Assembly (NCBI GenBank): GCA_030649345.1
Contig: JAUSKK010000038.1
Location: 1 to 32,000, forward strand
Reading direction: 5' to 3'
DNA length: 32,000 bases
Origin: Candidatus Iainarchaeum sp.
Lineage (GTDB): Archaea > Iainarchaeota > Iainarchaeia > Iainarchaeales > 0-14-0-20-34-12
In this document: piece by piece, positions 8,629 through 28,325 of the stretch
Layout of the letters: the number at the start of each line of letters is the position of its first letter
Numbering within the stretch: position 1 is the first letter of the stretch
Notes under the pieces: generated by a model
What the model was told of the DNA's origin: nothing
Databases searched by the model: none
What the model saw: the letters and a program-made list of their open reading frames with translations, nothing else
Program-made: the position numbers and the translations under genes

Positions 8629-8793
8629 TGAGGGTGATGAGATTTGAACTCATGTCGTAAGCTAATTTGAATCCTTTTTCCAGTTTCGTATGATCGAGCG
8701 TTAGCGAAGATCATACATCCCGGATGCATCGAAACCACGGAGTGGTTTGGATTCCCAAAGCTTAAATGCTAAACCAGGCTACACTACACCCCC
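8629..8793 (-). tRNA. tRNA-Pro (anticodon UGG) with a 90-nt intron (8664-8753) at position 37/38
   Basis: Exon 1 (8793-8754) is GGGGGTG TA GTGT AGCCTGGTTTA GCAT T TAAGC TT-TGG-G. Exon 2 (8663-8629) is A GCTTA CGAC ATGAG TTCAAAT CTCAT CACCCTC A. The acceptor pairs at 7/7 positions with one G-U, and the anticodon stem TAAGC/GCTTA is perfect. The splice sites sit in GG|A and TT|A bulges around a 4-bp TTTG/CAAA helix, with an outer AATCC/GGATT helix, giving a bulge-helix-bulge. No CCA is encoded. Confidence 0.85.
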
Positions 8794-9598: not shown

Positions 9599-10414
9599 AT
9601 GCGTATTGGTTTATTGGGCACAGGGAACATGGGCGGAGCAATCTTGAAATCGATTGTTGAATCCAATCAATTTAACAAAAAAGACTTGTTTGCTTTTGAT
9701 GTCAATTCTGAAAAATTAAACAAATTTTGTTCTGATTTAAAAATTCAGGCTTGTACTTCTGCGATTGATTTAGTGAAAAATTCAGATGTAATTATTTTGG
9801 CTTGCAAGCCCCAGCAAATGCCTGTTGTTTGTTCTGAAATTTCTGCTGTTATTTCTTCGAATCATTTAGTGATTTCCATTGCTGCAGGAATTCCTTTAAA
9901 GTTTTTTGAAGAAAAATTAAATAAAGCAAGAATTATTCGAGTGATGCCGAATATGCCTTTATTGGTACGTGCAGGAATGACTGTTTTTAGTTTAGGCAAA
10001 AATACAAATTCGGAAGACAAAAAATTAATTGAAGAAATTTTTAGTTTAACTGGAACTGTCTTAGAAGTTTCCGAAGAAAAAATTGGAATTGCCAGTATTG
10101 CATTTTCGTGCATGCCTGGCTGGACTGCGTATTTTATGGATGCATTTATTCAAGCTTGTAAAAAACAAGGTTTAAGTGAAGAACAAGCTCAAATCATGAT
10201 TGCTCAAGCTTTTTTAGGTTCCGGAAAATATGTTTTGGAAACCAAAACCAAGCCAGCAGATTTAGTCAAACAAGTGGCTTCTCCAGGCGGAATTACGCAA
10301 CAAGGCTTGGAAGTATTTGATTCAGTTCAACTACAGAAAATCTTAGAACAAGCAGTCGAACGCGGAATGAAAAGAACCCAAGAATTAGCCCAAGGTGTTG
10401 AACAAACAAAATGA
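9599..10414 (+). CDS. proC: pyrroline-5-carboxylate reductase
   Basis: The start was trimmed to ATG 9599; the ORF-track start at 9452 is TTG and overlaps the upstream gene. MRIGLLGTGNMGGAI is a Rossmann motif and SPGGITQQGL is the P5CR signature. A TTTAAATTAATT box lies about 25 nt upstream. Confidence 0.85.
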   Translation: MRIGLLGTGNMGGAILKSIVESNQFNKKDLFAFDVNSEKLNKFCSDLKIQACTSAIDLVKNSDVIILACKPQQMPVVCSEISAVISSNHLVISIAAGIPLKFFEEKLNKARIIRVMPNMPLLVRAGMTVFSLGKNTNSEDKKLIEEIFSLTGTVLEVSEEKIGIASIAFSCMPGWTAYFMDAFIQACKKQGLSEEQAQIMIAQAFLGSGKYVLETKTKPADLVKQVASPGGITQQGLEVFDSVQLQKILEQAVERGMKRTQELAQGVEQTK

Positions 10415-10460
10415 TATTTTGAATTGTGTTGTTCGTATTGAGTAGTATTCAACACCTTGG
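10390..10460 (+). repeat. about 70-bp inverted-repeat element, copy A
   Basis: A perfect 13-bp inverted repeat is formed by CCAAGGTGTTGAA (10390-10402) and TTCAACACCTTGG (10448-10460). The termini CAAGGTGYTGAACAAAYAA and TAGTATTCAACAYCTTGG are shared with the copies at 28146-28284. The left arm lies inside the last 8 codons of proC. Confidence 0.65.
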
Positions 10461-10475
10461 CGGAACAAGCAAAAT

Positions 10476-10483
10476 AATTTATT
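10476..10483 (+). promoter_or_regulatory. putative TATA box (AATTTATT) of paralog P1
   Basis: The box centre is about 25 nt upstream of ATG 10505, which implies a leaderless or near-leaderless mRNA. Confidence 0.4.
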
Positions 10484-10504
10484 CTCTTAAACACTAATTT
10501 TATA

Positions 10505-11392
10505 ATGCCTGGAAAAGGAAAGTCTCAGTCTGCTGTTACGCGGTCAAAAATTAGCTTGGCTAGAAAAGCTCTTCTTGCAAAGAATCGACCTGCTTTGATT
10601 CGCAGAAATCGTCAATTGGCTGTCGAAAGATTGCGTGCACTTTTAGCCAATCATGAATCCATTAATTCAAGATATATTCGAGATCGTCATCCTCGTTTAT
10701 ATGATTTAATCCGTAGGGCTTTTGGTTCTCATGAACAAGCTGTAGTAAAAGGTTTGAAAATGGATTATGATCAAGTTCGTGTTTCTGTTGATGAAAGATC
10801 TAAACGTGTGCGTGCTGGCTGGAAAAAACAATGGAGTGAAGCAGACTTAAAAAAACGCAGAAAAATAATGCATGCTTTAAGACGCAGAAGACGAATTGTC
10901 AATCGTTTGCAAAATATTTCTTTTATTTCAAAACTTTTAGAATTGCGTTTACAAGGCTGGCATCATTCCCTGGTTGCAAAACGCTTGAATATTGCTGAAA
11001 AAACTTGGCAAATTTGGTCTAGTCGAGTTATTCATACAGTTTCTCCAGAATTGCGAGAACACTGGAAAGCCATTGCTCGAGCAATTCAATACGAAAAAAT
11101 TACAAGCATTTTAAATGGAAGCCCAGCTGTTTCATGGAATGAAGCTCAAGCTATTGCTGCAAAATTTAAAAAAACTGAATTGAAAAAATTTTCAGAAAAT
11201 AGAAGAAAAATTTACAGATTGGCATTGACTGGAAAATCAATACCTGAACTTGCTGGTGAATTAAATGTTTCTGAAAAAGAAGCTGTGGCTTTGGTAAATA
11301 TGCTGTCCTTTGAGCAATCTGAAAAAATCAAAAAAAAGTGGTTAAGGCAGTCCTTGGAACGTGTTCGAGCTGAACGGACAGTTCAACCATAA
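10505..11392 (+). CDS. basic double-HTH paralog P1
   Basis: This 295-aa protein is Lys/Arg-rich. Its helical module is RHPRLYDLIRRAFGSHEQAVVKGLKMDY. HTH-1 is LRLQGWHHSLVAKRLNIAEKT and HTH-2 is LALTGKSIPELAGELNVSEKEAVALV. Confidence 0.8.
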   Translation: MPGKGKSQSAVTRSKISLARKALLAKNRPALIRRNRQLAVERLRALLANHESINSRYIRDRHPRLYDLIRRAFGSHEQAVVKGLKMDYDQVRVSVDERSKRVRAGWKKQWSEADLKKRRKIMHALRRRRRIVNRLQNISFISKLLELRLQGWHHSLVAKRLNIAEKTWQIWSSRVIHTVSPELREHWKAIARAIQYEKITSILNGSPAVSWNEAQAIAAKFKKTELKKFSENRRKIYRLALTGKSIPELAGELNVSEKEAVALVNMLSFEQSEKIKKKWLRQSLERVRAERTVQP

Positions 11393-11393
11393 C

Positions 11394-11403
11394 AATTTAT
11401 TTT
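11394..11403 (+). promoter_or_regulatory. putative TATA box (AATTTATTTT) of paralog P2
   Basis: The box centre is about 25 nt upstream of ATG 11423. The decamer is identical to the one at 13231-13240. Confidence 0.4.
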
Positions 11404-11422
11404 ACTTGAACATTATTCTAAT

Positions 11423-12331
11423 ATGCCTATTCGTGGAAAACTCAATCGGCCTCCTTTGTCTGCTGAAGCCAGAGCTAGAATTGGTTTAAAACAAAAAAGG
11501 TATTGGAACAAAAATAGGTCAGCTTTAACTCGAAAAAGAAGAATAAAAGCAGTAACTGCTTTGAACGAATTGCAGGCTAAAGGTTTACCTTTAAATCCAA
11601 GATTTTTGCTTGCTCATTTTCCAAAAGTTTACAATTTGGCTCGCGGTGCCTTTAAAACTTATCAGAAAGCCATCGAAAAAGGTTTGGGTTTAAAGTATGC
11701 TGAAGTTAGTTTTCAAGGAGAAAAAAAATCAAAAGTTTCCAGTGAAGCTTCCAAACGTCAATGGGCAGAACGTGCTCTTCCTGAAAAAAGAAAAAGAATC
11801 CGTTTATGGACAGCCGCACGCGAAATAACTTTACGCAAACGAACCATTGCTCGCAGAGCCAAAGTATTAAGTTATCGTTTGCGTGGATTTTCAACGGATT
11901 GGCTTGCAGAAAAGTTTGGAGTAGAACGAGTTACAATTGTGCGTGATATTTTATTTTTAAGAAATACTTTAAAACCTGAAGTACAAACTGCGTTAGCTCA
12001 ATTAAATGATTTTTTTATCCGAAATCCAAACGCAAAAAAAGCAAACGGAACTTTTATTGTTTCACCTGAAACAGCCAGCAGTACTGGCATTGAATTTCGC
12101 AGAAAAGAATTGCAAAAATTAAAATTAATTCCAAAAGAAATAGCTAAACTGGCTTTGACCGGAAAAACAAATCCAGAAATTGCTCAAGTCTTAAATTTGA
12201 CTGAAAAAGAAGTTGCTCAAATGATTGGTTGGCTTCCGGAAAAACAATTTAAAAAAATTAGTTTACTTAGATTAAGAACTGCATTTACTGCTTGGAAAGC
12301 CAAACAAACAGGAGCTGTAAAAAATGCCTGA
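11423..12331 (+). CDS. basic double-HTH paralog P2
   Basis: This 302-aa protein has a NUMOD3-like PPLSAEARARIGLKQKRYW motif and the module FPKVYNLARGAFKTYQKAIEKGLGLKY. HTH-1 is YRLRGFSTDWLAEKFGVERVTIVRDI and HTH-2 is LALTGKTNPEIAQVLNLTEKEVAQMI. Confidence 0.8.
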   Translation: MPIRGKLNRPPLSAEARARIGLKQKRYWNKNRSALTRKRRIKAVTALNELQAKGLPLNPRFLLAHFPKVYNLARGAFKTYQKAIEKGLGLKYAEVSFQGEKKSKVSSEASKRQWAERALPEKRKRIRLWTAAREITLRKRTIARRAKVLSYRLRGFSTDWLAEKFGVERVTIVRDILFLRNTLKPEVQTALAQLNDFFIRNPNAKKANGTFIVSPETASSTGIEFRRKELQKLKLIPKEIAKLALTGKTNPEIAQVLNLTEKEVAQMIGWLPEKQFKKISLLRLRTAFTAWKAKQTGAVKNA

Positions 12332-13232
12332 ATTGAGAACCGCTTTTGTGATTTCTAAAACTAAACGAAAAGGCCATACTATTTCTCCTGAAACTAAAGA
12401 AAAAATCCGGCAAAAACGTTTGGCTTATTTTAAGCGTGCTGGGACACGTTTGCGTGCAGCCAAGAAAGCTCGCTTGTTAGCTGAATTTAAAGAAATTCAA
12501 AAACATGGTGAACCCATTAATGTGGCGCAAATGCATAAAAAACACAGGGCTGTTTATCAGCGAGCAGTTGCTTTTTCTGGTTCGTATGAAAAATTTGTAG
12601 AACAAGTTTTAGGCTTAAAATATTCGGATGTACAAATTTCTCAAGATACTATGATTGCGCGAAACAGAGAGCAGGCTCAAAAACAAGTGGCTGCCCGAAC
12701 TCCTGGAGAACAAATTAAAAAACGCAGAGAATTAATTCGCGGAAGATATTGGACTCAACAAAAAATACATATTCGAGTTTTGCGTTCTGTTCTTGCTTTG
12801 CGTTTACAAGGGCATTCTTTGGCCAGCATGGGTGATCGTTTAGGTTACAAATTGAAAACTGTTTCTCAATTCTTAACTGAACTATATCCTTTGGTCCCCC
12901 AAGAAGTTCACGACCGTTTAATTGAAATCCGAACTGCTTTTCTGCGAGTAAATAATGTACGCAAACTGGGTAAAGGTCCAGTATTGGCTGGCCCTGAAGC
13001 TGCTCAAATTGCCAGTGCTTTTGGAAGCGATTTAATCAAAACGTTTAATGAAAATTATGCTAAAGTAAAAGACTTAAGCTTGCAAGGCATTTGGCCGGAT
13101 GAAATTTCCAGACAAACAGGACTGCCTCAAGAGACTGTTGTACGCTTGACTAAAATGTTTCCAGAAAAGGTTCACAAGCGTTCTGTAAAAGCTAAATTTG
13201 CCAAATTTGTACGCCCTTTGAAAAGAAAGTAA
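12324..13232 (+). CDS. basic double-HTH paralog P3
   Basis: This 302-aa protein starts 8 nt inside the P2 reading frame (ATGCCTGA overlap). It has a NUMOD3-like KGHTISPETKEKIRQKRLAYF motif and the module FSGSYEKFVEQVLGLKY. HTH-1 is LRLQGHSLASMGDRLGYKLKTVSQFL and HTH-2 is LSLQGIWPDEISRQTGLPQETVVRL. Confidence 0.8.
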   Translation: MPELRTAFVISKTKRKGHTISPETKEKIRQKRLAYFKRAGTRLRAAKKARLLAEFKEIQKHGEPINVAQMHKKHRAVYQRAVAFSGSYEKFVEQVLGLKYSDVQISQDTMIARNREQAQKQVAARTPGEQIKKRRELIRGRYWTQQKIHIRVLRSVLALRLQGHSLASMGDRLGYKLKTVSQFLTELYPLVPQEVHDRLIEIRTAFLRVNNVRKLGKGPVLAGPEAAQIASAFGSDLIKTFNENYAKVKDLSLQGIWPDEISRQTGLPQETVVRLTKMFPEKVHKRSVKAKFAKFVRPLKRK

Positions 13233-13240
13233 TTTATTTT
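13231..13240 (+). promoter_or_regulatory. putative TATA box (AATTTATTTT) of paralog P4
   Basis: The box centre is about 25 nt upstream of ATG 13260. Confidence 0.4.
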
Positions 13241-13259
13241 CAAATTCTCTATTTATTAT

Positions 13260-14096
13260 ATGCAGCCCAAACTAAGCAGAGCTAATTTAGTTAAACCACC
13301 GGTTACTCGAAAGTCTCAAAATCGCAGGCCTAAGCTAATGGAGCGCTTGAAAGCTTTACATGGAAAAATTCCATTAAATCCTACTGCCATTATGAAAAGT
13401 CATCCAGGTTTGTATCGTTTATTGTGTGCAGAATTTGGAACCTATGGTAATGCTGTAGAATCTGCTTTAGGTATTCCTTATGAAAAAGTTCGTTTAAATA
13501 AACAAGAAATTGAACGAAGACAAAAAGATGCCGGTAACAGAAAGCGTGCCAGAATGTCGGATAAAGAAAAAAGCGTGCAGATTTATGATTTAATTCGAAA
13601 CAGAAGATTGGCTATGCGCAGGCATGTAATTGGCCAGCAAGCCAAAGTTTTAAGTTTGCGCTTGCAAGGATATCCTGTGCGAGTGATCCAAGAATTTTTA
13701 GGAGTGCAAAAATTAGCTGTCACAAAACGCGGCGGAGAATTGCGAAAAATTTTACCCCAAGCACTTGTGGAACGCTTAAAACAAATAGAATTGGCCAGAC
13801 GTTCAGTTGAAGAAAAAGATAAGCTGGAAGGATCGCTTGTTTTTTCTAAACCGGATGCTGAAAAAATTGCTGGCAATTTTCAAAAAACTGAATGGAAAAA
13901 ATTCAATAGTGTATTAAAACAAATTTATGAGAAAAGATTGACTGGAAAAACAAACAGTGAAATTGCTGTTGAATTAAATATTCCGGAAAAAAATATTGTT
14001 TCATTTACCCGATTGCTTTCAGTTACCCAATTCAGAGAAATTCGCATACTTGAACTTAAACAAGTCAAAGAACGGGTGTGGCGTAAAGGGAAATAG
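13260..14096 (+). CDS. basic double-HTH paralog P4
   Basis: This 278-aa protein has the module HPGLYRLLCAEFGTYGNAVESALGIPY. HTH-1 is LRLQGYPVRVIQEFLGVQKLAVTKR and HTH-2 is RLTGKTNSEIAVELNIPEKNIVSF. It has no clear N-terminal NUMOD3-like motif. Confidence 0.8.
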   Translation: MQPKLSRANLVKPPVTRKSQNRRPKLMERLKALHGKIPLNPTAIMKSHPGLYRLLCAEFGTYGNAVESALGIPYEKVRLNKQEIERRQKDAGNRKRARMSDKEKSVQIYDLIRNRRLAMRRHVIGQQAKVLSLRLQGYPVRVIQEFLGVQKLAVTKRGGELRKILPQALVERLKQIELARRSVEEKDKLEGSLVFSKPDAEKIAGNFQKTEWKKFNSVLKQIYEKRLTGKTNSEIAVELNIPEKNIVSFTRLLSVTQFREIRILELKQVKERVWRKGK

Positions 14097-14127
14097 TTTA
14101 ATACTGGTTTAGAATACCTTTCTATGT

Positions 14128-15048
14128 ATGCTGGAATTACGCAAACCATTGGTTATAGAAAAACGTGCTCGCAAAGGAACTCCTTTAAGTGAAGAAGCCA
14201 AACGAAAAATTAGTGCAGCGCGAAAAAGATGGTTGGCTGAAAATTCAGGGCGTTTAAGAAAAGAATCCCGAGCTCGAGTTGTAAAAGAATTGCAAGCTTT
14301 AAGAACACGCAATGAAGCCATTAATTACGAATACATTCGAAAACGATATCCTAAATTAGGTAGATCTGCAAGGCATGCTTTTGGAACTTATGAAAAAGCC
14401 ATTACCGAAGGCTTGGGATTATCATACGATCAAGTAAAAGTTTCTGAAGAAAAACGCGTTCAGCGCGTTCAAAAAGGTTCTGCAAAATATTGGGAAAAAT
14501 TTGATACTCCAGGTTCCAGAAGACGAAGAACCCATGCATGGATTTCCAGCGGATATTTAGCTAGTAAAAAAACCCAATTTCGAAGAATGGCTGAAATTTT
14601 AAGTCTGCGCTTGCAAGGATTTCAAACTCGAACAATTGCTCAACAACTGAAAGTTCATCCAAATGAAGTTCATCGCAGAATTAATCAAATTCGTGCTGTT
14701 GCAGTTCCTGAATTAGCTGAACAATTATTATTGATTCAACGGAGACTCAAAAATCAACAACGTTTACCGCAAATTGATGGAGCACAAATTCTTTCTCGCG
14801 ATTCCGCCAATCAATTTGCGCGAGAATTTCAAAAAACTCAATTGAAAAAGTTTAATGAAGATCGAAAGCAAGCAGGAAAATTGGCTTTGCAAGGAAAAAC
14901 AAATTTAGAAATTGGCATTGCTTTAGGTTTGCCGTCCGAAGAAGTTCAAATTTATTTAAAATCTTTGCCAATTCAAATACTTGAAAAAATTCGAATTTTA
15001 AAACTAAGGCAAGCTCTGATGAGAACAAAAGCAGTTCGAGGCCAATAA
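14128..15048 (+). CDS. basic double-HTH paralog P5
   Basis: This 306-aa protein has a NUMOD3-like RKGTPLSEEAKRKISAARKRW motif and the module YPKLGRSARHAFGTYEKAITEGLGLSY. HTH-1 is LRLQGFQTRTIAQQLKVHPNEVHRRI and HTH-2 is LALQGKTNLEIGIALGLPSEEVQIYL. Confidence 0.8.
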   Translation: MLELRKPLVIEKRARKGTPLSEEAKRKISAARKRWLAENSGRLRKESRARVVKELQALRTRNEAINYEYIRKRYPKLGRSARHAFGTYEKAITEGLGLSYDQVKVSEEKRVQRVQKGSAKYWEKFDTPGSRRRRTHAWISSGYLASKKTQFRRMAEILSLRLQGFQTRTIAQQLKVHPNEVHRRINQIRAVAVPELAEQLLLIQRRLKNQQRLPQIDGAQILSRDSANQFAREFQKTQLKKFNEDRKQAGKLALQGKTNLEIGIALGLPSEEVQIYLKSLPIQILEKIRILKLRQALMRTKAVRGQ

Positions 15049-16191
15049 ATGCCGAATTTTGCTGCAGTTCAAAAAAGAAAAGGGGTGCGTCCTTCTTTAA
15101 GTGCGCGGAAAAAATTACGTGAAGCAAAATTAAGATATTATGAACAAAATCGTACGCGAATTCGACAGCAAACTCGAAAGAATTTGGTTTCTGGATTTCG
15201 TTCATTAATTCAGGCAAAAGTTCCATTGAATTCAACAAATATTAGTCAAAATCATGCTGCTTTGTATGTTAAAGCCAGAAGATATTCTGGAACATATCAA
15301 AGATTTGTAGAAGAAGTTCTAGGGTTGAAATACGAGGCCATTCAAATTTCTAAAGAAAAACAAGGACAACGCAGAGAACAGCATCGCGTAAAAGTTGGAA
15401 AAAATTTGAAAAAAGAATTTCGAAAACTTTTGGCTGGAGATAATTCTAAACTAATTATGCATGTATTGAATCCGGCATATATGCGGGATCATTACAGAAA
15501 TTTGTATCAAGCTGCGTTAAGATATTCTGGAACGTACCAAAAATTTATTGAACAAGAGCTTGGCTTAAAGTACTCAGAGGTTTTATTGTCTCCGGAAGAA
15601 GCTAAACGAAGAATCTCTCAAGGCGGAAAAAATCGCTGGGCTAATGTTTCTTCGGATGAAAAACGTATATCTCAACGTACACTAAATCGCAAGCGTAGAT
15701 TTTCGCTGAAGAAAAAATACAGAAACAATCTTGCTCTTGCAGTGAGTTATCGTTTGCAAGGGCATAGTACAAATCGCATATCGCGGCGTTTAGGCAAAAA
15801 AGATGAAACCATTCGAAGATATTTGCTGGAAGCTAAAAAATATTTAGAACCTTCCGTCATTGAACAATTGGATGACATTCAATTCGAACTTCGAAATTCT
15901 TCTGTAGCCAGTGCAATTTCTTCTGAAAAAGCACGAACAATTGCTGTTCAAGTACGCAAAAAAATGCAGCAAGAATTAAATCAACAAATTCGTGCTGTTG
16001 GTGAGTTAGGTTTGCAAGGATTATTCCCTGAAAAAATTGCTGAACGTATGAATCTTCCCTTTGATGAGGTTAAAACTTTGCTGGGTCTGCAGTCGGAAAG
16101 TATGCATAAACGCATTTTAAGAGCTTGTTTTACTTTAGTTAAAGCTCGTGTTCAAGCTCAAAGACAATCAATTTTGCCTGCAACTACATAG
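15049..16191 (+). CDS. basic double-HTH paralog P6 (with duplicated helical module)
   Basis: This 380-aa protein has its ATG directly abutting the P5 stop (TAAATG). It has a NUMOD3-like KGVRPSLSARKKLREAKLRYY motif. Two copies of the RYSGTYQ[RK]F[VI]E..LGLKY module lie exactly 80 aa apart. HTH-1 is YRLQGHSTNRISRRLGKKDETIRRYL and HTH-2 is LGLQGLFPEKIAERMNLPFDEVKTLL. Confidence 0.8.
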   Translation: MPNFAAVQKRKGVRPSLSARKKLREAKLRYYEQNRTRIRQQTRKNLVSGFRSLIQAKVPLNSTNISQNHAALYVKARRYSGTYQRFVEEVLGLKYEAIQISKEKQGQRREQHRVKVGKNLKKEFRKLLAGDNSKLIMHVLNPAYMRDHYRNLYQAALRYSGTYQKFIEQELGLKYSEVLLSPEEAKRRISQGGKNRWANVSSDEKRISQRTLNRKRRFSLKKKYRNNLALAVSYRLQGHSTNRISRRLGKKDETIRRYLLEAKKYLEPSVIEQLDDIQFELRNSSVASAISSEKARTIAVQVRKKMQQELNQQIRAVGELGLQGLFPEKIAERMNLPFDEVKTLLGLQSESMHKRILRACFTLVKARVQAQRQSILPATT

Positions 16192-16244
16192 CCTATGCAT
16201 TAAATATTTTTGGTTAACTAATTAATTAGATTTTAGGTAATTTC

Positions 16245-17486
16245 ATGTCTTTGAAAGCAAATTTTATTCAAGCTAAAAAAGCAAGCCAAATTTTAGCTCA
16301 AGCTAGCACAAAACAAAAAAACTTGGTTTTAAAAATTTTAGCTCAAGAACTCAAAAAACAAACAAAAGAAATTTTGAAAGCCAACCAACAAGATTTACTT
16401 GCTGGAAAAAAAATTGGACTGAATGAAGCTTTTTTAGATCGACTTGAATTAAACAAAAATCGAATTAATGGAATCATTGAATCTGTGCAGCAAGTTCAAA
16501 AATTATCTGATCCAGTTAATCAAGTTTTGGAAAAAAGAATTTTATACAATGGCTTAAAATTGAAAAAAGTTTCTGTTCCCTTTGGAGTGATTGGAGTAAT
16601 TTATGAATCTAGGCCGAATGTTACAATTGATGTTGCCATTTTGTGTTTGAAGTCAGGTAATGCTTGCTTATTGAAAGGCGGGCCGGAAGCAAACTATTCC
16701 AATCAAGCTTTAACCAAAATTATTCAAACTGCTTTACGTAAAGCAAAATTGCCTGTGCCTGCAGTTCAGTCTTTGAATCCTGAAAAGAAAACTGTTGCAG
16801 AATTACTGCAAGCAAAACAATTTGTGGATTTAATTATTCCAAGAGGCGGGCCTGGCTTAATTAAATTTGTGGAAGAAAATTCTAAAATTCCTTTTTTGGC
16901 TGCAGGTGCAGGAATTTGTCATATATTTGTAGATGATTCTGCAGATTTAAAGAATGCTGTTGAAATTGTATTCAATGCCAAATGTCAAAGGCCATCAGTA
17001 TGCAATGCTATTGAATGTGTAATTGTGCATGAAAAAATTGCTGGCAAATTTTTGCCTTTAATGGAACAAAAATTATTGGAAAAAACAACTGAATTGCTTG
17101 CAGATAAAAAATCTTTAAAATTTTTGAAAACAGGGGCCCTTGCTCAAGCAAAAGATTTTGATACTGAATTTTTGGATTACAAAATGGCAGTCAAAACAGT
17201 TCAAGATTATCAAGAAGCCATTGAGTTCATTAACCAACATGGCACCAAGCATTCGGAAAGTATTTTGTCCAAAAATAAAAAACATATTCAAGCATTTTTA
17301 CGGCAAGTAGATTCTGCGGCAGTGTATGCTAATTCCAGTACTCGTTTTACGGATGGTTTTGAATTTGGCTTGGGTGCAGAAATTGGAATTTCTACTTCTA
17401 AGTTTCATGCCCGGGGTCCAATGGCTTTGAAAGAATTAACTACGTACAAATATGTGATTGAAGGAAAAGGGCAAATTCGAAATTGA
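16245..17486 (+). CDS. proA: gamma-glutamyl phosphate reductase
   Basis: The 413-aa ORF has an aldehyde-dehydrogenase-type fold, with the YESRPNVT motif and the catalytic-Cys context RPSVCNAIECVIVH. The length is typical of ProA. Confidence 0.9.
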   Translation: MSLKANFIQAKKASQILAQASTKQKNLVLKILAQELKKQTKEILKANQQDLLAGKKIGLNEAFLDRLELNKNRINGIIESVQQVQKLSDPVNQVLEKRILYNGLKLKKVSVPFGVIGVIYESRPNVTIDVAILCLKSGNACLLKGGPEANYSNQALTKIIQTALRKAKLPVPAVQSLNPEKKTVAELLQAKQFVDLIIPRGGPGLIKFVEENSKIPFLAAGAGICHIFVDDSADLKNAVEIVFNAKCQRPSVCNAIECVIVHEKIAGKFLPLMEQKLLEKTTELLADKKSLKFLKTGALAQAKDFDTEFLDYKMAVKTVQDYQEAIEFINQHGTKHSESILSKNKKHIQAFLRQVDSAAVYANSSTRFTDGFEFGLGAEIGISTSKFHARGPMALKELTTYKYVIEGKGQIRN

Positions 17487-17492
17487 TTCTAA

Positions 17493-17987
17493 ATGCCGGC
17501 ACGTGTTTCCAAAGTCTATGTTTTCTGGGAACCATACTTAATGATGAAAGTCCGTGATTTACTTTTGTTGCAAAGAACACCGCGTGAAATTGCACAAGCT
17601 TTAAAGCGTTCCAATTCTCATTTGACTGAAATTGGAATTACTGGAATGATCGGGCGAGTATTTGGCAGAACTCGAGAATTATCTAACGGCCAAATTAATA
17701 AAGCGTACGATCGTTGGTTTTTGTTTTATAAAGATCAAGCAGCACGAAAAAAAATTTTAGCCCAACGCGGTCGTGCAGGCCAAAAAGTCAGAGCACAAAA
17801 ATATCCCCAAAAAGAACTAGACGCAATGTTTAAACCTTTTTTTAGTTTAGGTCCAAAAGCTTTGTGGACTCGCTTGAATGCAAATCCTGAGCAAAGAAGA
17901 CGTTTTTTAGAAGAACGAAATGCTGCGATTTCTAAAGCCAAGCAAAGAAAAAAGCTTGGTAAGAAAACAGCGTTCCGCAAACCTTAA
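17493..17987 (+). CDS. short divergent member of the basic HTH paralog family (P7)
   Basis: This 164-aa protein starts 6 nt after the proA stop. Like P1, P2, P3 and P6 it begins Met-Pro. It has an HTH-like LLLLQRTPREIAQALKRSNSHLTEI segment and a C-terminal NUMOD3-like PEQRRRFLEERNAAISKAKQRKK motif. Confidence 0.6.
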   Translation: MPARVSKVYVFWEPYLMMKVRDLLLLQRTPREIAQALKRSNSHLTEIGITGMIGRVFGRTRELSNGQINKAYDRWFLFYKDQAARKKILAQRGRAGQKVRAQKYPQKELDAMFKPFFSLGPKALWTRLNANPEQRRRFLEERNAAISKAKQRKKLGKKTAFRKP

Positions 17988-18015
17988 AAAGTTCAAATTG
18001 TATTTTAACCTAAGT

Positions 18016-19119
18016 ATGCTAAGATCAAGAAAAGCTATTCATCCATCTACTCAGAGAGCTGTTCAAAATAGATTAATTGCTGGATGGACAGATAAACAAG
18101 TTAGGGCTGAAGGTCATTCAGTTAGCACAGTAGATCGAACATTAAAAACTTTGACTCCCAAAGAAAGAGAAACTCGTACTTTGAATATGTTGTTACGCAA
18201 GCATGGTTCTCCTTTGTCTGTGGATGCAGCTAGGAAAAAATTATTGGCCAGTGTAGATAAGCCTGTTATTGAACGTGCAAAAGAATTGGGTGTTGAACCG
18301 CAAAGCTTGGCTTGGTATTTAAGATATCTGCCGGAAAAATTTCGTGCATCCAATCAAGAAAGAGTTATTCGTTTATTGAAAGCCAGAAGAAAAGCCGGAA
18401 AGCCAATTTCTTTAAAAGCTTTGGAAGCAGATAGTCCTGCATTGTATCGTGCAGCCAGACGTGCTTTTGGTTCTTATCGAAAAGCAGTGGACGCTGCAGG
18501 CTATACTTATGAAACTGTTTCCAGAAAAGGTACCACCTCTGCTAATTTGAAGAATTATTATTCCGGACCGCAAGAAAATCGCAGAAGAAAAGAAAGTGCA
18601 ATGCGAATGCGGGAAACAGTTACACGAAATAATTTGAGACTTGTTTCTCGAGTGCTTGAATTAAGACTGCAAGGTTATGCCAAAGGATTTATTCAAAAAA
18701 GAATCCGGCAAAATAAGTCTTCGGTTCAAAGGCATTTAAGGTTTCTTTACCGGAATGCTTCGCCTGAATTGAACGCAAGACTGCAGAAAATTACAGCTGA
18801 TTTAGAACAAGCTCATGTAGCAAAACTTTCCAATGGTGCTACTATTTCTGAATCCGAAGCTAAAATAATAGTTAAACAATTTCAAGTGCATTACAAAAAT
18901 TATTTGAATCAATTAAAAAGTCAAGTATTGGATTTGCAAATGAAAGGCAAATCTTTAGAGCAAATTGCCAAAGAATTGAATGCAGAACTTTTTGATGTGA
19001 CTTTGGTTCGCGGCAGGTTTTCTAGAAAAGAACAATTGGCTGTTTTAAAAGCAGCTAATGAAAGAGCGCGGCAAAATCCCAGGCCTTTAATTCAGACTGT
19101 TGTAAGCCCTGCTGCTTAA
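18016..19119 (+). CDS. basic HTH paralog P8 (with extra N-terminal HTH)
   Basis: This is a 367-aa protein from ATG 18016. An upstream in-frame ATG at 17920 would overlap P7 by 68 nt. The extra N-terminal HTH is IAGWTDKQVRAEGHSVSTVDRTLKTL and the module is SPALYRAARRAFGSYRKAVDAAGYTYE. HTH-1 is LRLQGYAKGFIQKRIRQNKSSVQRHL and HTH-2 is LQMKGKSLEQIAKELNAELFDVTLV. Confidence 0.75.
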   Translation: MLRSRKAIHPSTQRAVQNRLIAGWTDKQVRAEGHSVSTVDRTLKTLTPKERETRTLNMLLRKHGSPLSVDAARKKLLASVDKPVIERAKELGVEPQSLAWYLRYLPEKFRASNQERVIRLLKARRKAGKPISLKALEADSPALYRAARRAFGSYRKAVDAAGYTYETVSRKGTTSANLKNYYSGPQENRRRKESAMRMRETVTRNNLRLVSRVLELRLQGYAKGFIQKRIRQNKSSVQRHLRFLYRNASPELNARLQKITADLEQAHVAKLSNGATISESEAKIIVKQFQVHYKNYLNQLKSQVLDLQMKGKSLEQIAKELNAELFDVTLVRGRFSRKEQLAVLKAANERARQNPRPLIQTVVSPAA

Positions 19120-19144: not shown

Positions 19145-19891
19145 ATGGATTTTTTTGCCTTAGTTTTAATTTTTTTTGTTTCAATTTTTGCTTCTTTTAT
19201 TAGTTCCATGGTGGGCAGCGGCGGTTTGATTACTATTCCTTTTTTGATTTTTTTAGGTTTGCCGGCTCCTACCGCCATTGCTTCGCATCGTGTTGGTTCT
19301 CTAGGCTTGCAGTTGGGTTCGCTTTCTCGTTTTTGGAATGAGAATAAAATTAACTGGAAATATATTTTACCGTTTACAATTATTGATGTGGTTAGTGCTT
19401 TTGTGGGCGCCCATTTATTGGTTTCAGCAGATTCCAATTTGTTGTCGAAATCTTTGGGTTTTATTTTATTGTTGTTATTGCCTTTGAGTTTTTTTAAAAA
19501 AGATTTTGGAACAGTTTCCAAAAATGTTTCCAATCAACGAAAATTTTTAGGAGTTGTTTGTTATTTTTTGGCTGGAATCTGGGGCGGTTTTTTTGGAGGA
19601 GGCGCAGGTACTTTGGTGTATGCGATTTATGTTTCTTTTTTTGGTTTTACTTTAATTGAAGCCATTGCCACAGATAAAATCCCAGGCTTTCTTTCAGGTT
19701 TACTGGCTGTAGTATTGTTTTCAGCCTATGGTTTGATTGATTATTCTGTAGGTTTTACCATGTTTTTTGCCATGATTATTGGAAGTTTTTTGGGCGCGCA
19801 TATGGCTTTACAGAAAGGAAATGTTTGGCTGAAAGCCTTATTTGGCTTGATTGTTTTGATTTTAGCCTTAAAGCTGATATTTTTTAACTGA
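19145..19891 (+). CDS. TauE/SafE family anion exporter (membrane protein)
   Basis: This 248-aa polytopic membrane protein has two homologous halves with glycine-rich motifs (MVGSGGLITIP and GGFFGGGAGT), as in the TauE/SafE (DUF81) family. The antisense ORF 19123..19533 is rejected. Confidence 0.7.
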   Translation: MDFFALVLIFFVSIFASFISSMVGSGGLITIPFLIFLGLPAPTAIASHRVGSLGLQLGSLSRFWNENKINWKYILPFTIIDVVSAFVGAHLLVSADSNLLSKSLGFILLLLLPLSFFKKDFGTVSKNVSNQRKFLGVVCYFLAGIWGGFFGGGAGTLVYAIYVSFFGFTLIEAIATDKIPGFLSGLLAVVLFSAYGLIDYSVGFTMFFAMIIGSFLGAHMALQKGNVWLKALFGLIVLILALKLIFFN

Positions 19892-19914
19892 TTGCTTCTT
19901 CATTTTTTAATCAT

Positions 19915-21033
19915 ATGATTCGAAACGAATTATTTAAATCAATTCAGCGGGTGGTTGTCAAAATTGGCACCAGCAGTATTTCGAATGACCAAGGAATTAA
20001 TTTAGTTTTTTTGACTTCTTTAGCCAATCAAGTTAAAGAATTGCAGTCCAAAGGAGTTCAAGTCATTATTGTTTCTTCGGGTGCTATTGGTTCGGGCGCA
20101 AAAGTTTTGGGCTTAAAAGCTCCCATTCGTGTGATTGAATTACAGCAAGTAAGTGCTGCAGTAGGTCAGCCTAGATTAATGCAAGCCTATGAAAATGTTT
20201 TTTCTGGTTTGGATTTAAAAGTTGCCCAAATTTTGCTGACTTATGATGTGTTTGAAAATCGAAGAAAATATTTAAATTTACGAAATGCATTGAATGAATT
20301 ATTGAAACTAAACGTGGTTCCCATTATTAACGAAAACGATGTTGTGGCTGTAGATGAAATTGGCCCAACTTTTACGGACAATGACAAACTCAGTGCTTTG
20401 GTTGCTGCGAAATTAAATGCTCAATTGTTGGTGAATTTAACCAGTACGGAAGGAGTGTATTCTCAAAATCCAAATCTTTCCAAAAATAAAAATTTTGAAG
20501 TTATAAAAGTGGTTGACAAAATTACTCCTGAACTGGAAAAAATTGCAGGCAAACCATCCATGCATGGCACTGGCGGAATGTATTCTAAAGTTCAAGCAGC
20601 CAAAATTTGCATGAAGGCCGGAATTTTTTTAGTAATTGCCAGTTCCAAGCAGCCCAATGTTTTAAATCGAATTGTTTCCGGTGAAGAATTGGGCACATTA
20701 TTTTTGCCGAAAGAAATTTTATCCAATAAACAACGATGGATTGCGTTTGGTCAGCCGAAAGGAATTTTGTTAGTGGATAATGGAGCTATGCTGGCAGTTC
20801 AAAAAGACAAAAGCTTATTGGCCATTGGTGTGCGGGAAATTATTGGTTCGTTTGAAAAAAACGAAATTGTTTCTTTGGTTTGCTCTGGAAAAGAATTTGC
20901 CCGAGGTTTAACTAATTTTTCTTCATCTGAATTAAAAAAAATCAAAGGATTGAATTCAGATCAAGCCGCAATGCAATTAGGAAAAAAGGTTAAATCTGTG
21001 GTTTTAGCCGAAAATCTTATTAAAATGAATTAA
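19915..21033 (+). CDS. proB: glutamate 5-kinase (with C-terminal PUA domain)
   Basis: The 372-aa ORF has the amino-acid-kinase motifs VVKIGTSSI, IIVSSGAIG and INENDVV. A roughly 90-aa PUA-like domain forms the C-terminus. Confidence 0.9.
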   Translation: MIRNELFKSIQRVVVKIGTSSISNDQGINLVFLTSLANQVKELQSKGVQVIIVSSGAIGSGAKVLGLKAPIRVIELQQVSAAVGQPRLMQAYENVFSGLDLKVAQILLTYDVFENRRKYLNLRNALNELLKLNVVPIINENDVVAVDEIGPTFTDNDKLSALVAAKLNAQLLVNLTSTEGVYSQNPNLSKNKNFEVIKVVDKITPELEKIAGKPSMHGTGGMYSKVQAAKICMKAGIFLVIASSKQPNVLNRIVSGEELGTLFLPKEILSNKQRWIAFGQPKGILLVDNGAMLAVQKDKSLLAIGVREIIGSFEKNEIVSLVCSGKEFARGLTNFSSSELKKIKGLNSDQAAMQLGKKVKSVVLAENLIKMN

Positions 21034-21046
21034 GTACTGTATTTTT

Positions 21047-22525
21047 ATGTCTGAAAAAGTAAATCCAAAAACTGAAAAGATTACCTTTAATATTGACAAA
21101 GAAAAAAACTTTAGTGACTGGTTTACTGAAATTATTAAAACAGCTGAACTGGCGGATATTCGATACAATGTAAAAGGTTTTTTGGTTTTCCAGCCTTGGT
21201 CTGTTTTATCCATGGAATCCATTTACTTTTTTTTAGAACGAGTACTCCAAAAAAAAGGACACAAGCCTTATTGGTATCCTGCCGTGATTCCAGAGAAAAA
21301 TTTTTATTTAGAACAAGAACATGTGCAAGGTTTTACTCCAGAAGTATTCTGGGTTACCGAACATGGAGCTGGAGAAAAATTAGAAGAAAAATTAGCTTTA
21401 CGTCCAACCAGTGAAACTGCTTTTTATCAAATGTTTTCAATCTGGATTCGTTCCTATAATGATTTGCCGTTTAAGACTTATCAAAGAGCGCAAGTTTGGA
21501 GATATGAAACCAAAGCCACAAGGCCTTTTTTGAGAGCAAGAGAATTTCATTGGATTGAGACTCATTGTGCTTTTGAAACCGAAGAAGATGCCAGAGCTCA
21601 AGTTCAAGAAGATATGGAAACTACAGAAGAAGTATTGCACACTATTTTAGGAGTTCCATTTATTTTTTTCAAACGACCTCAATGGGATAAATTTGCAGGA
21701 GCTGTAAATACTTTTGGTGCAGATACTTTAATGCCGGACGGCCGAGTTCTCCAATTGCCAAGTACTCATTTATTGGGGCAAAACTTTTCCAAGCCCTTTA
21801 ATGTAAAATTTACGGATTCCGAAGGTCAAGAAAAGTTTACGTTTTTGACTTGCTATGGTCCTGCGGTTGGAAGAATTTTTGCAGCCGTTTGTGCAGTTCA
21901 CGGAGACAACAAAGGATTAAGATTTCCTTGGGCGATTGCTCCAGTTCAAATTGTAATTGTTCCCATTGGAATGAATAAAGATAAAAATGTTTTAACCAAA
22001 GCGCATACATTGAAAGAAAAATTACAAAATGCATTTTATCGGGTTGAAGTAGATGTTTCTGAAAAAATGCCGGGTGAAAAATTTTATTTTTGGGAAATGA
22101 AAGGAGTTCCTGTGCGTTTAGAATTAGGTCCTAAAGAAATACTGGAAGGAAAGTTAACTGTTTTCAGACGTGACACGAATTCAAAGACTCAAATTTTGGA
22201 AAAAGATTTGCTTTCATTTATTGAAAAAACTGGAAAAGAAATTACTGAAAATTTGAAAACTCAAGCAGACCAAAAATTTAAAGATGTTTTGGTTTCCGTT
22301 AAAACCAAAGCAGAAATTGAGCCAGTAATTGTTGCCGGAAAGATTGCACGTACTCCTTTTTGTTCAACCAATATGGAAGGAAATGCCTGCGCTGAATTGA
22401 TTGAAAAAGAAATTCATGCCCGAGTTCGAGGTACAAGAATTGATGTTCCGCAAACTGTTTCCGGTAATTGTGTGGTGTGCAATAAGCCTGCAAAAGAAAC
22501 AGTGTATATTGCCCGCGAATACTGA
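21047..22525 (+). CDS. proS: prolyl-tRNA synthetase, archaeal/eukaryotic type
   Basis: The 492-aa ORF has a class II core (LRPTSET, FLRAREFHWIE, YGPAVGRI) and no bacterial insertion or editing domain. The C-terminal Zn-like domain (CVVCNKPA) ends in a Tyr (IAREY), as in archaeal-type ProRS. Confidence 0.9.
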   Translation: MSEKVNPKTEKITFNIDKEKNFSDWFTEIIKTAELADIRYNVKGFLVFQPWSVLSMESIYFFLERVLQKKGHKPYWYPAVIPEKNFYLEQEHVQGFTPEVFWVTEHGAGEKLEEKLALRPTSETAFYQMFSIWIRSYNDLPFKTYQRAQVWRYETKATRPFLRAREFHWIETHCAFETEEDARAQVQEDMETTEEVLHTILGVPFIFFKRPQWDKFAGAVNTFGADTLMPDGRVLQLPSTHLLGQNFSKPFNVKFTDSEGQEKFTFLTCYGPAVGRIFAAVCAVHGDNKGLRFPWAIAPVQIVIVPIGMNKDKNVLTKAHTLKEKLQNAFYRVEVDVSEKMPGEKFYFWEMKGVPVRLELGPKEILEGKLTVFRRDTNSKTQILEKDLLSFIEKTGKEITENLKTQADQKFKDVLVSVKTKAEIEPVIVAGKIARTPFCSTNMEGNACAELIEKEIHARVRGTRIDVPQTVSGNCVVCNKPAKETVYIAREY

Positions 22526-22539: not shown

Positions 22540-23223
22540 CTATTTAGGTCGGTTTCTCATTCGATTAAATCGTCCAGCAATTTTTCCAAACTTTTTTAAT
22601 TGTTGTCTGCTGGCTTGAACCAGTTTTAGGTGGATATCTTTTTTTGGGTGTATTTTTTTTCTATCGGGATTGCGAAATACTTGTAGCCATAAACTTTCTC
22701 GGGCAGTTCCATGTAAATTATAAATTGAAAAAGGAGATTGTGTAGATCCTACAAAGTCAAGTTTATGCCATGCACCTTGAGTGTATGTCCATCCTGGTTT
22801 TTGGCTGTGATTGTTAAAACTAAATGCCCCGCTAAATATGCGGGCTTTTCCTACTGTTTGAAAATATTGTTTTAGTTTTGTTATGCCCAATCCTGTTTCA
22901 CTGTATTCATCTAAAAATAATATTCTATTTTTTGGGTTTTGAAATTCAGCATATGTTTTAGGTCGTTTTTCTCGAATAGCTTGTTCTAAAGCTTCTATAT
23001 TTTCAGAATCGTGAGTAATGTTTCGGGTTTTTCCCAATGCAATTATTTTTGGCATTTCTTCTATTGGATAACCACTGGCTTTCCAAGCATTTGCAATCAA
23101 ATGTCTTAGAGGAACAGCAGCTGTTCCTTTTAGTGCAATTACATTAATTTTGTTTTCCTGAATCCAATTAATTAATCGAATGGATGTTAAAATAATTTCT
23201 CGTTCAGAAGCAGATCTCGGCAT
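22540..23223 (-). CDS. hypothetical protein, phosphoribosyltransferase-like motif
   Basis: The 227-aa ORF has RILFLDEYSETGLGI, which resembles the acidic PRPP-binding loop of type I PRTases (hydrophobic run, two acidic residues, then TG). The C-terminal tail is basic. It is the last gene of a tightly packed four-gene unit. Confidence 0.35.
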   Translation of the reverse strand: MPRSASEREIILTSIRLINWIQENKINVIALKGTAAVPLRHLIANAWKASGYPIEEMPKIIALGKTRNITHDSENIEALEQAIREKRPKTYAEFQNPKNRILFLDEYSETGLGITKLKQYFQTVGKARIFSGAFSFNNHSQKPGWTYTQGAWHKLDFVGSTQSPFSIYNLHGTARESLWLQVFRNPDRKKIHPKKDIHLKLVQASRQQLKKFGKIAGRFNRMRNRPK

Positions 23224-23226
23224 AAG

Positions 23227-23907
23227 TTATTTTTGTTTTCTTAAATAGTTTTCAATTTCTTCTTCGCTGACTGCGCATCCTGCGTATTTGACTGCATACA
23301 ATGCTGCTCGTGCAGCCTTGATGGTGTTGGTAATGGTTTCATTCAGTAAACCTTCTTCGTAGGCTAAAGCAATTAATTCAGTTGAACGAATAATAATGGG
23401 CTTGGGAATAATTTGATTTAATTCATTTAAAATAGTAGAGTTTACTTGGATATTGATTCCTTGTCTTCGTTGAATTAATTCACGTAATTCATTGGGTGTT
23501 TCAATTAACATTCTGGTAGTTTTTTCATCCATGCATAAAATTCTGGAATTGACTTGCTGCATTAATGCTAAAGATTCTGCTTCTCCTTTGTGCAAGATTT
23601 GAATAAATTTTCCATTGCTGTGAAATAATTTTCCACATAAAGAAACCATTCGTTCTTCCAGTGCTTTGGATTCAGAATTCATTTGAGCTACTTGAATCCA
23701 TTTTTCATTTAATCCTTTTTGAATTCTTTCTGAACTTAACTGAAATCGTTTAATGGTGCTGGGAGTTTCAATGCTTTCTTCGGCAACTCCTTGGCTCATT
23801 ATAAATTGAATTCCTAATTTTTTGTTGAGTGCACGAAACACATCAAATAAGCAGGTTTCGCTTAAAGAAATTAAAGCGCTTGAATCCAATACAATAATAG
23901 TGTTCAT
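23227..23907 (-). CDS. PIN-domain protein
   Basis: The 226-aa ORF has IIVLDSSALISL (first acidic residue), KGEAESLAL and CMDEKTTR. These fit the PIN acidic triad spacing, in a COG2405-like arrangement. A C-terminal helical extension follows. Confidence 0.5.
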   Translation of the reverse strand: MNTIIVLDSSALISLSETCLFDVFRALNKKLGIQFIMSQGVAEESIETPSTIKRFQLSSERIQKGLNEKWIQVAQMNSESKALEERMVSLCGKLFHSNGKFIQILHKGEAESLALMQQVNSRILCMDEKTTRMLIETPNELRELIQRRQGINIQVNSTILNELNQIIPKPIIIRSTELIALAYEEGLLNETITNTIKAARAALYAVKYAGCAVSEEEIENYLRKQK

Positions 23908-23912
23908 GTGCT

Positions 23913-24590: not shown

Positions 24591-25144
24591 TCCAGTACAC
24601 TCCGCAATGCTTCCAATCGTCCAGTGATTCCTTTTTTGTCTACTTCTAAATCATGCTGTTTGGTGTACCCAATGTATTTTTGCAAGTCTTCTTTGGGCAC
24701 GTCCAATAATTCTGCGGCTTGTGCCAAGGATATTCCATAGTAGTGGGCGTCAGCTGCATATTTTACGCGTGCTTTATCATACGCGCTTTGAACATAGACT
24801 CCCAATTCTTTATCCACTGCTCTTAGATTGACTGTAACTGAATTGAGTTCGCGTTCGAATTTTTTCAAGTTTTTTTCTTTAAGTTCATGTTCTGCTTTTT
24901 CAATGGTTTCAGATATGGCCAATTTTTGTTCCAGCCAGAAATGGTTTTCGACTACATGTTCTTTGGTTAATAGTTTATGCAATGCATACGCCAATACTGC
25001 TATTTTGGCTAATAATGCACTGTTTTGTAAGGCTGCGTCTTTAATGGTTTCATTGGCTAGTTTTCGCAAGCCCATAATGTTTTCTTTTTGAAGTTCTTTG
25101 CGCATTCGCAGTGTATAGTTTTCTAGAGCTTGCTGGTATTCCAT
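24587..25144 (-). CDS. hypothetical helical protein with C-terminal HTH-like segment
   Basis: The 185-aa ORF is predicted helical. GISLAQAAELLDVPKEDLQKYIGYT looks like an HTH. It is the first gene of the four-gene minus-strand unit. Confidence 0.4.
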   Translation of the reverse strand: MEYQQALENYTLRMRKELQKENIMGLRKLANETIKDAALQNSALLAKIAVLAYALHKLLTKEHVVENHFWLEQKLAISETIEKAEHELKEKNLKKFERELNSVTVNLRAVDKELGVYVQSAYDKARVKYAADAHYYGISLAQAAELLDVPKEDLQKYIGYTKQHDLEVDKKGITGRLEALRSVLE

Positions 25145-28109: not shown

Positions 28110-28145
28110 ATGTTTTTTCCTTATTTTACCTAAATTTGGGCCAGT

Positions 28146-28284: not shown

Positions 28285-28325
28285 TAAAGCTTTTTATTTT
28301 GCAAATTAATAATACATACGATTGT

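Follow-up and report, generated by a model that had tools for sequence, protein, structure and literature searches.

Seven old, strongly basic double helix-turn-helix paralogs among the proline genes of a Candidatus Iainarchaeum contig: candidate DNA-binding regulators carrying a PF18780 unit

What are the strongly basic proteins that are encoded, one after another, among the proline genes of an archaeon, and what might they do there? The question is raised by a 32,000-nucleotide stretch of DNA from Candidatus Iainarchaeum sp. (assembly GCA_030649345.1, contig JAUSKK010000038.1, positions 1 to 32,000), hereafter the window. The original prediction, made from the sequence by eye, described eight paralogous open reading frames (ORFs), P1 to P8, each with a conserved helical module and two helix-turn-helix (HTH) domains. 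Here we find that seven of these ORFs form one old family whose helical module belongs to a known repeat family, and that the most probable explanation of the array is a lineage-specific expansion of DNA-binding regulators.

P1 to P6 and P8 can be aligned over their full length (BLASTP E-values of 1e-8 to 1e-45), and a six-frame scan of the whole window with a hidden Markov model (HMM) of the family returned exactly seven ORFs, at 313-420 bits, and nothing more. The array and its shared architecture are real, with seven members in place of the eight originally counted; P7 is not detectable as a member. The ORF coordinates bear out the prediction that these reading frames follow one another on the same strand:

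P1, 10505..11392, + strand: 295 aa; A-type; TATA-like box at -27; family HMM score 392 bits
P2, 11423..12331, + strand: 302 aa; A-type; TATA-like box at -27; first of the coupled pair P2-P3
P3, 12324..13232, + strand: 302 aa; B-type; GGAG upstream, without a TATA-like box
P4, 13260..14096, + strand: 278 aa; short N-terminus; TATA-like box at -27
P5, 14128..15048, + strand: 306 aa; reference member; NCBI MDO8428492.1, Q7S92_04740
P6, 15049..16191, + strand: 380 aa; B-type; GAGG upstream; N-terminal part duplicated internally
P8, 18016..19119, + strand: 367 aa from the NCBI start (399 aa if the start is at 17920)

Two members depart from the common plan. P6 matches the family HMM in two pieces (residues 1-113 and 118-370) and carries an internal duplication, seen as a DNA repeat, D1, with copies at 15285-15356 and 15525-15596. 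P8, the most divergent member, is longer by ~130 aa at its N-terminus, where additional HTH-like stretches occur; its most likely start is the NCBI start at 18016, which is favoured by a TATA-like box 32 nt upstream.

The paralogs are old and have been kept by selection at the protein level. Pairwise identity within the family is 21-34% for protein and 40-49% for aligned DNA, different codons are used for 48% of the residues that are identical between paralogs, identity at third codon positions is 35-47%, and synonymous sites are near saturation. A neighbour-joining tree was nearly star-shaped, with P1 and P5 (80% bootstrap) and P3 and P6 (77%) grouping together. The alignment consensus (HPxLYxxARRAFGTYxKAVExxLGLKYxxV, LSLRLQG and LxLxGKxxxEIAxxLNLPxxEV) agrees with the three motif blocks that had been picked out by eye. 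Low DNA identity combined with so many differing codons shows that the copies are ancient, as had been proposed, and under protein constraint, and excludes both an assembly artefact and a recent amplification. That the ORFs are spurious, or were produced by repeats collapsed or expanded during assembly, has a negligible chance of being right: the source is a metagenome-assembled genome (MAG), and nothing beyond this speaks for an artefact, whereas the copies have kept their protein motifs despite their dissimilar DNA and differing codons, and all seven full-length ORFs are annotated as genes by NCBI.

Three modules can be placed along each protein, for which P5 serves as the reference:

PF18780 unit of P5, 14257..14445, + strand: residues 44-106
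HTH-1 of P5, 14575..14703, + strand: residues ~150-192; invariant R-L-x-G, variable recognition helix
HTH-2 of P5, 14857..14967, + strand: residues ~244-280; L-x-L-x-G-K-T-N-x-E-I-A; LuxR/NarL-like

Profile comparison identifies the conserved helical module of the family as a single unit of the Pfam repeat PF18780 (HNH_repeat, "homing endonuclease associated repeat"). P1 to P5 and P8 have one such unit each and P6 has two (residues ~41-103 and ~119-183), and these eight units aligned to PF18780 repeats in hhalign with 99.5% probability and an E-value of 1e-22. When single sequences were scanned with hmmscan, PF18780 was matched in P8 only (E 0.0059; 17.4 bits against a 26-bit cut-off). An exhaustive search of 1.84 billion representatives with the family profile matched 2042 proteins at E<=0.001. 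Among the best 150 of these 2042 matches, which are dominated by PF18780 repeat proteins and behind which homologs scoring below ~114 bits could be hidden, full-length matches were obtained only for six of the seven window paralogs (P4 was not among them). Apart from two poly-HTH proteins, P0092 and P0137, the other matches among these 150 covered profile positions ~38-105 only, with 4-15 matched stretches each, and PF18780 proteins were matched through these positions at up to E 8e-74. The non-self matches among the 150 that were scanned with Pfam are PF18780 proteins. Two of the scanned proteins also match PF22083 (I-HmuI NUMOD-like), one above and one below the cut-off, and no nuclease domain was found in the PF18780 proteins scanned with Pfam, which are among those most similar to the window module. 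One metagenomic PF18780 repeat protein of 446 aa, P0003, has an N-terminal stretch resembling a MucR/Ros zinc finger (CRICGR...HLRTHG; a ROS_MUCR match of 20.9 bits, short of the 25.4-bit cut-off), which ties PF18780 repeats to a known DNA-binding regulator domain.

The two HTH modules resemble those of LuxR-type regulators and of sigma-factor region 4. In Pfam, HTH-1 of P5 scores 23.4 bits with GerE (cut-off 23.5) and matches Sigma70_r4_2 at E 1.9e-4, and LuxR/sigma-4 matches recur consistently in all seven proteins, the others scoring 14-21 bits. HTH-1 is also matched by extracytoplasmic-function sigma models in NCBIfam, by the phage family phrog_3855 ("HTH DNA binding protein") in PHROGs, at up to E 7.6e-7, and by SpoIIID (PDB 2l0k) at E 0.008, while residues 143-215 of P3 match the PADLOC homing-endonuclease model (HEase) at E 4e-4. 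It is followed by a conserved "PEL..E.L..I" helix. For HTH-2, sub-threshold Pfam matches to GerE and Sigma70_r4_2 were obtained in P1, P2 and P4, and it is through HTH-2 that the family profile matched NarL and DesR in the PDB at E 0.008-0.011. Comparison of HTH-1 with HTH-2 in hhalign gave 91% probability and E 1e-6, which indicates that the two modules are related. Per-column variability within HTH-1 is uneven: hydrophobic scaffold columns are conserved and exposed recognition-helix columns vary between paralogs.

The family members are highly basic, as originally noted, with isoelectric points (pI) of 10.6-11.3, net charges of +35 to +48 and 0-1 cysteines per protein, and their modules are linked by long Lys/Arg-rich helices. 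A model of P5, built in AlphaFold2 with the seven paralogs as alignment, is all-helical, with a mean predicted local distance difference test (pLDDT) score of 86 and a predicted template modelling (pTM) score of 0.55. The HTH helices lie where they are expected (pLDDT >90), and the model has neither a beta-beta-alpha nor a GIY-YIG fold. A Foldseek search of the PDB and BFVD with this model returned nothing at E<=0.001 and no global relative, and no significant match to I-HmuI or I-TevI; local matches through the HTHs were to GerE, NarL, DegU and LiaR (target TM-scores 0.52-0.59, E 1.5-3.3).

Profile libraries (Pfam, NCBIfam, PHROGs and PADLOC) gave no assignment for a whole protein, with sub-threshold matches to single modules only, and revealed no nuclease (HNH, GIY-YIG, EDxHD, LAGLIDADG, PD-(D/E)xK or other), zinc-finger, sensor, ligand-binding or enzymatic domain in the family. 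The proposal that this is not a well-characterised regulator family is upheld by these scans. The related statement that the family is not recognisable holds for the whole protein, which the libraries leave unplaced, but not for its parts, as the helical module is PF18780 and the HTHs are ordinary LuxR/sigma-4/SpoIIID-like modules. Two weak similarities point towards homing endonucleases: the N-terminus of P5 matches NUMOD3 (E 0.0036; 17.6 bits against a cut-off of 20.4), and P1 matches phrog_20467 ("HNH endonuclease") at E 0.03. NUMOD3 had been suspected by eye in all N-termini and linkers, and the sub-threshold match in P5 was the only one obtained. Two other likenesses were set aside. The best sequence match in the PDB, 8vd6 ("CAP REPEAT", E 3e-14), is a de novo designed repeat protein (PMC12339374) and was discarded as uninformative, and Rop-like matches of the N-terminal helices were taken as generic helical-hairpin similarity.

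Searches for relatives of the double-HTH half came back empty. In an index of 5.8 billion proteins its profile found only itself, and no relatives were found in 185,579 GTDB species genomes, JGI metagenome contigs or IMG/VR; the contig collections include neither the source MAG nor a close relative, and indexed searches depend on shared 5-mers or conserved peptide patterns. A tblastn search of phage and plasmid records likewise returned none, and exact look-ups of P5 and P6 gave no contig. These searches yielded no related genome with the family, no relative devoid of the array in which an insertion would show, and no presence/absence variants.

Going by its upstream motifs, the array would be divided into several transcription units. 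A TATA-like hexamer was counted when it started 24-35 nt upstream of a start codon, a position that fits leaderless archaeal mRNAs, and it was found at 16 of the 32 start codons in the window compared with 10.6% of random positions. TATA-like boxes precede P1, P2, P4, P5 and P8 (at -27 to -32; for P8 with the start at 18016), and such boxes are also present at the TauE-family gene, proB and proS. There is no such box at P3, P6 or P7, and a Shine-Dalgarno-like GGAG/GAGG lies ~8-14 nt upstream of P3 and P6. From these motifs the likely units are P1, P2-P3, P4, P5-P6, proA-P7 and P8, among others. The view of an array inserted into a proline operon is therefore too simple: the pro genes are indeed clustered and co-oriented, but several predicted units take the place of one operon with inserts. 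As P3 and P6 are sister paralogs, an ancestral two-gene cassette may have duplicated. In a scan for bacterial promoters and terminators the counts did not exceed those expected from shuffled sequence, which is unsurprising in an archaeon.

Judging by their modules, the P proteins most likely bind DNA. We favour the reading that P1 to P6 and P8 are diversified, nuclease-free DNA-binding regulators resembling the DNA-binding arms of homing endonucleases, and hold it with about as much confidence as doubt. The family would consist of elongated, all-helical, strongly basic and lineage-restricted proteins made up of DNA-binding-type modules only. On DNA, each protein would stretch along a long site of perhaps 20-30 bp, placing the recognition helix of HTH-1 and the PF18780 unit in consecutive major grooves, while its basic helices would touch the backbone or the minor groove; by analogy, the target would be read as it is by the loosely tethered NUMOD arms of HNH/GIY-YIG homing endonucleases. 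The conserved scaffold and the differing exposed positions of HTH-1 suggest that the seven copies most likely recognise different sites, as diversified regulators would, and this variability of the recognition helices fits the "diversified regulator set" that was among the functions first proposed. The B-type proteins P3 and P6, whose genes have no promoter of their own, may act jointly with P2 and P5, which are encoded upstream of them. The array would have arisen by ancient tandem duplication, possibly of the two-gene cassette, and would have been kept by purifying selection.

Several observations weigh against the regulator reading. All of the Pfam HTH matches fall below gathering scores, and the Foldseek matches are not significant (best E 0.05-0.5). 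In the P5 model the modules are confidently predicted, but the pTM indicates that their placement relative to one another is not. In HTH-2, acidic and hydrophobic residues make up most of the third helix, which has few basic ones and may therefore not read bases. No sensor or oligomerisation domain of the kind that regulators normally carry is evident in the family, PF18780 is without a solved relative, structure or described function, and, of all the collections searched, this MAG alone yielded the full architecture.

These observations leave room for other functions. The proteins might be nucleoid-associated or architectural chromatin proteins that coat, bridge or bend DNA with little specificity in a reduced DPANN genome. 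Their extreme basicity and their elongated, helical build with several DNA-binding modules would suit such a role, as would the investment of ~6.7 kb of a presumably small genome, and the sub-threshold zinc-finger stretch of P0003 and a weak similarity to the multi-HTH archaeal protein Cbp1 point the same way. We nevertheless consider it unlikely, because divergence to such low identity, together with variable recognition helices, points to distinct specificities and not to bulk coating. At ~300 aa the proteins are also far larger than typical archaeal chromatin proteins, neighbouring housekeeping proteins are rather basic too (pI 9.5-9.6), and the Cbp1 match (HTH_Cbp1, NCBIfam) reaches 16.7 bits, far under its 140-bit cut-off. 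Binding to RNA or ribosomes, as basic helical RNA chaperones or assembly factors, would account for the high positive charge and the extended helical shape and for nothing else that we observed; it seems very improbable, since the module-level similarities are all to DNA-binding HTH domains, no RNA-binding domain was detected and there is no Rfam RNA in the array.

The question of origin (homing-endonuclease-related modules or not) is partly independent of that of function (regulator or nucleoid protein). The proteins could be domesticated remnants, or still-selfish relatives, of free-standing homing-endonuclease genes that invaded the gaps between conserved genes, whose nuclease was lost or never present and which persist as purely DNA-binding proteins, perhaps as repressors or as protectors of target sites against related endonucleases. 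The name of PF18780 comes from an association with HNH homing endonucleases, related proteins also match PF22083, the HEase match of P3 and the matches of P1 and P5 given above lead to the same group, and the domesticated mobile-element proteins that the original prediction also entertained gain some support from these modules. The genes lie exactly between conserved genes with very short spacers, much as free-standing homing-endonuclease genes lie in intergenic positions in phage T4 (PMC3943268), and no orthologs were found in the collections searched. Against this, no nuclease, integrase or transposase was found in the family or in the Pfam-scanned ORFs of the window, and the nearest PF18780 proteins are nuclease-free themselves; the NUMOD3 match is sub-threshold and confined to one of the seven proteins; no relatives turned up in the phage, plasmid and viral-contig records searched; and seven intact, old ORFs with near-saturated synonymous sites indicate long-term selection and not decay. 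We therefore think this origin rather unlikely. More doubtful still is a bolder reading, in which the family would be a new class of archaeal DNA-organising or selfish genes, nuclease-free descendants of homing-endonuclease arms that spread into the gaps between conserved genes and now serve as a fast-evolving chromatin or regulatory toolkit confined to one DPANN lineage or as site protectors against related endonucleases. On that reading the PF18780 unit would be a new modular DNA-reading element, and its tandem-repeat relatives would be TALE-like.

P7 is a real gene, separate from the family:

P7, 17493..17987, + strand: 164 aa, pI 11.3; small basic protein with one HTH-like stretch, not a member of the family

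As an eighth member it was rejected in three comparisons with the family: BLAST gave nothing better than E 0.08, the family HMM gave no match even at E<=10, and hhalign gave a probability of 3% with only a 22-residue HTH-like stretch aligned. It has a homolog of its own elsewhere, P0156, a 98-aa fragment from sample SRR3989338 that is 72% identical and is its sole relative among the 5.8 billion proteins, which also argues that P7 belongs to a different family. An AlphaFold2 model of P7 was uninformative (pLDDT 51). The gene is probably co-transcribed with proA, and SRR3989338 probably holds a related organism. As the database holds this homolog of P7 and no comparable homolog of any family member, there is a slight indication that this relative either has no member of the family or has members that evolve much faster.

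The genes around the array are as follows:

proC, 9599..10414, + strand: Pfam P5CR_dimer and F420_oxidored; upstream of the array
proA, 16245..17486, + strand: Pfam Aldedh; between P6 and P7
TauE-family membrane protein, proB and proS, 19145..22525, + strand: Pfam TauE; AA_kinase and PUA; tRNA-synt_2b and ProRS-C_1

The order on the + strand is proC, P1 to P6, proA, P7, P8, the gene for the TauE-family membrane protein, proB and proS, so that the TauE-family gene sits between P8 and proB, and proB and proS take up 19915-22525. Placement of the array among proC, proA and proB is confirmed by the Pfam domains of these genes, and the tight linkage that had been described is also borne out: P2 and P3 have 8 nt in common, P5 runs directly into P6 (TAAATG) and a gap of 6 nt separates proA from P7. 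The window is part of an archaeal chromosome and encodes ribosomal protein S8e, Cgi121, GatD, diphthamide synthase, ATP-dependent DNA ligase, a RIO-type kinase and an archaeal-type prolyl-tRNA synthetase. An integrated virus or plasmid was ruled out, as the ORFs of the window that were scanned with Pfam include neither an integrase nor a transposase and GC content does not shift. Over the array (10001-19000) the + strand has an AT skew of +0.07 to +0.17, compared with ~-0.2 elsewhere, while G+C stays the same; this is explained most simply by the A-rich Lys, Arg and Glu codons of basic proteins and not by foreign origin.

The nearest relatives of proA, in genome and metagenome collections (loci L001-L161), are 45-51% identical and, in every case where an organism is given, come from bacteria (Bacteroidales, Clostridia). 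In all 104 of the related loci that have both genes, proB is followed directly by proA, compared with proC..proA..proB-proS in the window. The proline genes of this archaeon, going by these comparisons, may have been acquired from bacteria and then rearranged. No family member was found in any locus retrieved with proA as the anchor at this identity.

Other observations concern the rest of the window. Consecutive ORFs without a Pfam match lie at 22540-25144 on the - strand (227, 226, 225 and 185 aa), and more lie at 26202-26942 on the - strand (246 aa) and at 28242-30507 on the + strand (470 and 287 aa); BLAST at 1e-3 revealed no paralogy among them. A 165-nt tRNA gene at 8629-8793 on the - strand (Rfam full model, 41.7 bits) is presumably an intron-containing archaeal tRNA; ARAGORN called no tRNA in the window. 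A palindromic element of ~70 nt is present in three copies, at 10390-10460, 28144-28215 and 28213-28284, the first overlapping the proC stop codon just upstream of P1 and the other two in tandem in the spacer at 28.1-28.3 kb. It has 13-nt terminal inverted repeats (CCAAGGTGTTGAA / TTCAACACCTTGG) and contains an 18-mer, TAGTATTCAACAYCTTGG, that occurs three times against 0.06 expected; the RNA folds of the copies have z-scores of -3.9, -2.0 and -4.3. It could be an element like a miniature inverted-repeat transposable element or a repetitive extragenic palindrome, a structured RNA or a protein-binding site.

In the small genomes of DPANN archaea, few regulators can be recognised. For such an organism, a lineage-specific family of ~6.7 kb that contains DNA-binding modules only would be a notable share of the DNA-binding repertoire. 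The family also offers a compact, single-unit context for PF18780, a widespread repeat, as the number of proteins matched by the family profile attests. If the P proteins bind defined sites, they would give a tractable route to what the PF18780 unit recognises and would show whether the arms of homing endonucleases can become stand-alone regulators; if they are ordinary regulators of a single MAG, their significance is local.

How do these proteins compare with known systems? With LuxR/GerE (PF00196) and sigma-70 region 4 (PF08281/PF04545) they share, in both HTHs, the L-x-L-x-G / x-E-I-A-x-x-L / recognition-helix pattern. They differ from proteins such as NarL, GerE and DegU in that the libraries scanned show no receiver, autoinducer or sigma-2 domain, in that one chain bears two HTHs ~60 residues apart, and in that the third helix of HTH-2 does not have the usual basic residues. 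A match to archaeal Tfx in NCBIfam (E 0.0086) reached 16 bits against a 60-bit cut-off. SpoIIID, the mother-cell transcription factor of Bacillus, is a small monomeric sequence-specific regulator; its HTH and the segment that follows align with HTH-1 and the "..P.L...L..I" helix behind it. This likeness is marginal, between a bacterial protein of 93 aa with a single HTH and a module within an archaeal multi-module protein of ~300 aa.

Two further proteins for comparison are metagenomic, uncharacterised and matched by the family profile. P0092 (567 aa) consists of eight tandem units of ~65 aa that resemble the family's helix, HTH-1 and tail helix, with the unit pattern "RQGRVLELKLMG....IAEELGV...TV..DL..L..LA.GPIKELL"; on a Logan contig of 4.4 kb, its gene (L081, 172-1875) has as neighbours secY and a gene for a ribosomal protein with the Pfam domain Ribosomal_L27A. 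P0137 is a poly-HTH protein of 1557 aa that is matched through its HTH region. Unlike the window family, both are without a PF18780 unit and without an HTH-2-type tail.

The NUMOD arms of phage HNH and GIY-YIG homing endonucleases (I-HmuI, I-TevI, I-BmoI) share with the window proteins an elongated build of small helical DNA-binding modules on linkers, and weak matches of the family to the HEase, HNH-endonuclease and NUMOD3 models lie in the same direction. NUMOD-bearing homing endonucleases are elongated, with little hydrophobic core, and contact sites of up to 30 bp (PMC3943268). The window family differs from them in having no catalytic domain, and in its single sub-threshold NUMOD3 match.

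With PF18780 proteins the family shares the unit of ~60 residues, a helix followed by "P.LY..A...FG(S/T)(W/Y)..A....G..Y..V", in which the leading Trp of the PF18780 repeat is replaced by basic residues. The PF18780 proteins among the 150 matches have 4-15 tandem stretches and usually nothing else, whereas in the window proteins a single unit (two in P6) is joined to a pair of HTH modules and to long basic helices. By sequence comparison, the modules themselves are members or near-members of known families (PF18780; LuxR/sigma-4/SpoIIID-type HTH). What is new, and was found in no library or collection that we searched, is their combination: a single PF18780 unit, two HTHs and basic helices, free of any catalytic or sensor domain, encoded in a seven-gene array among pro genes.

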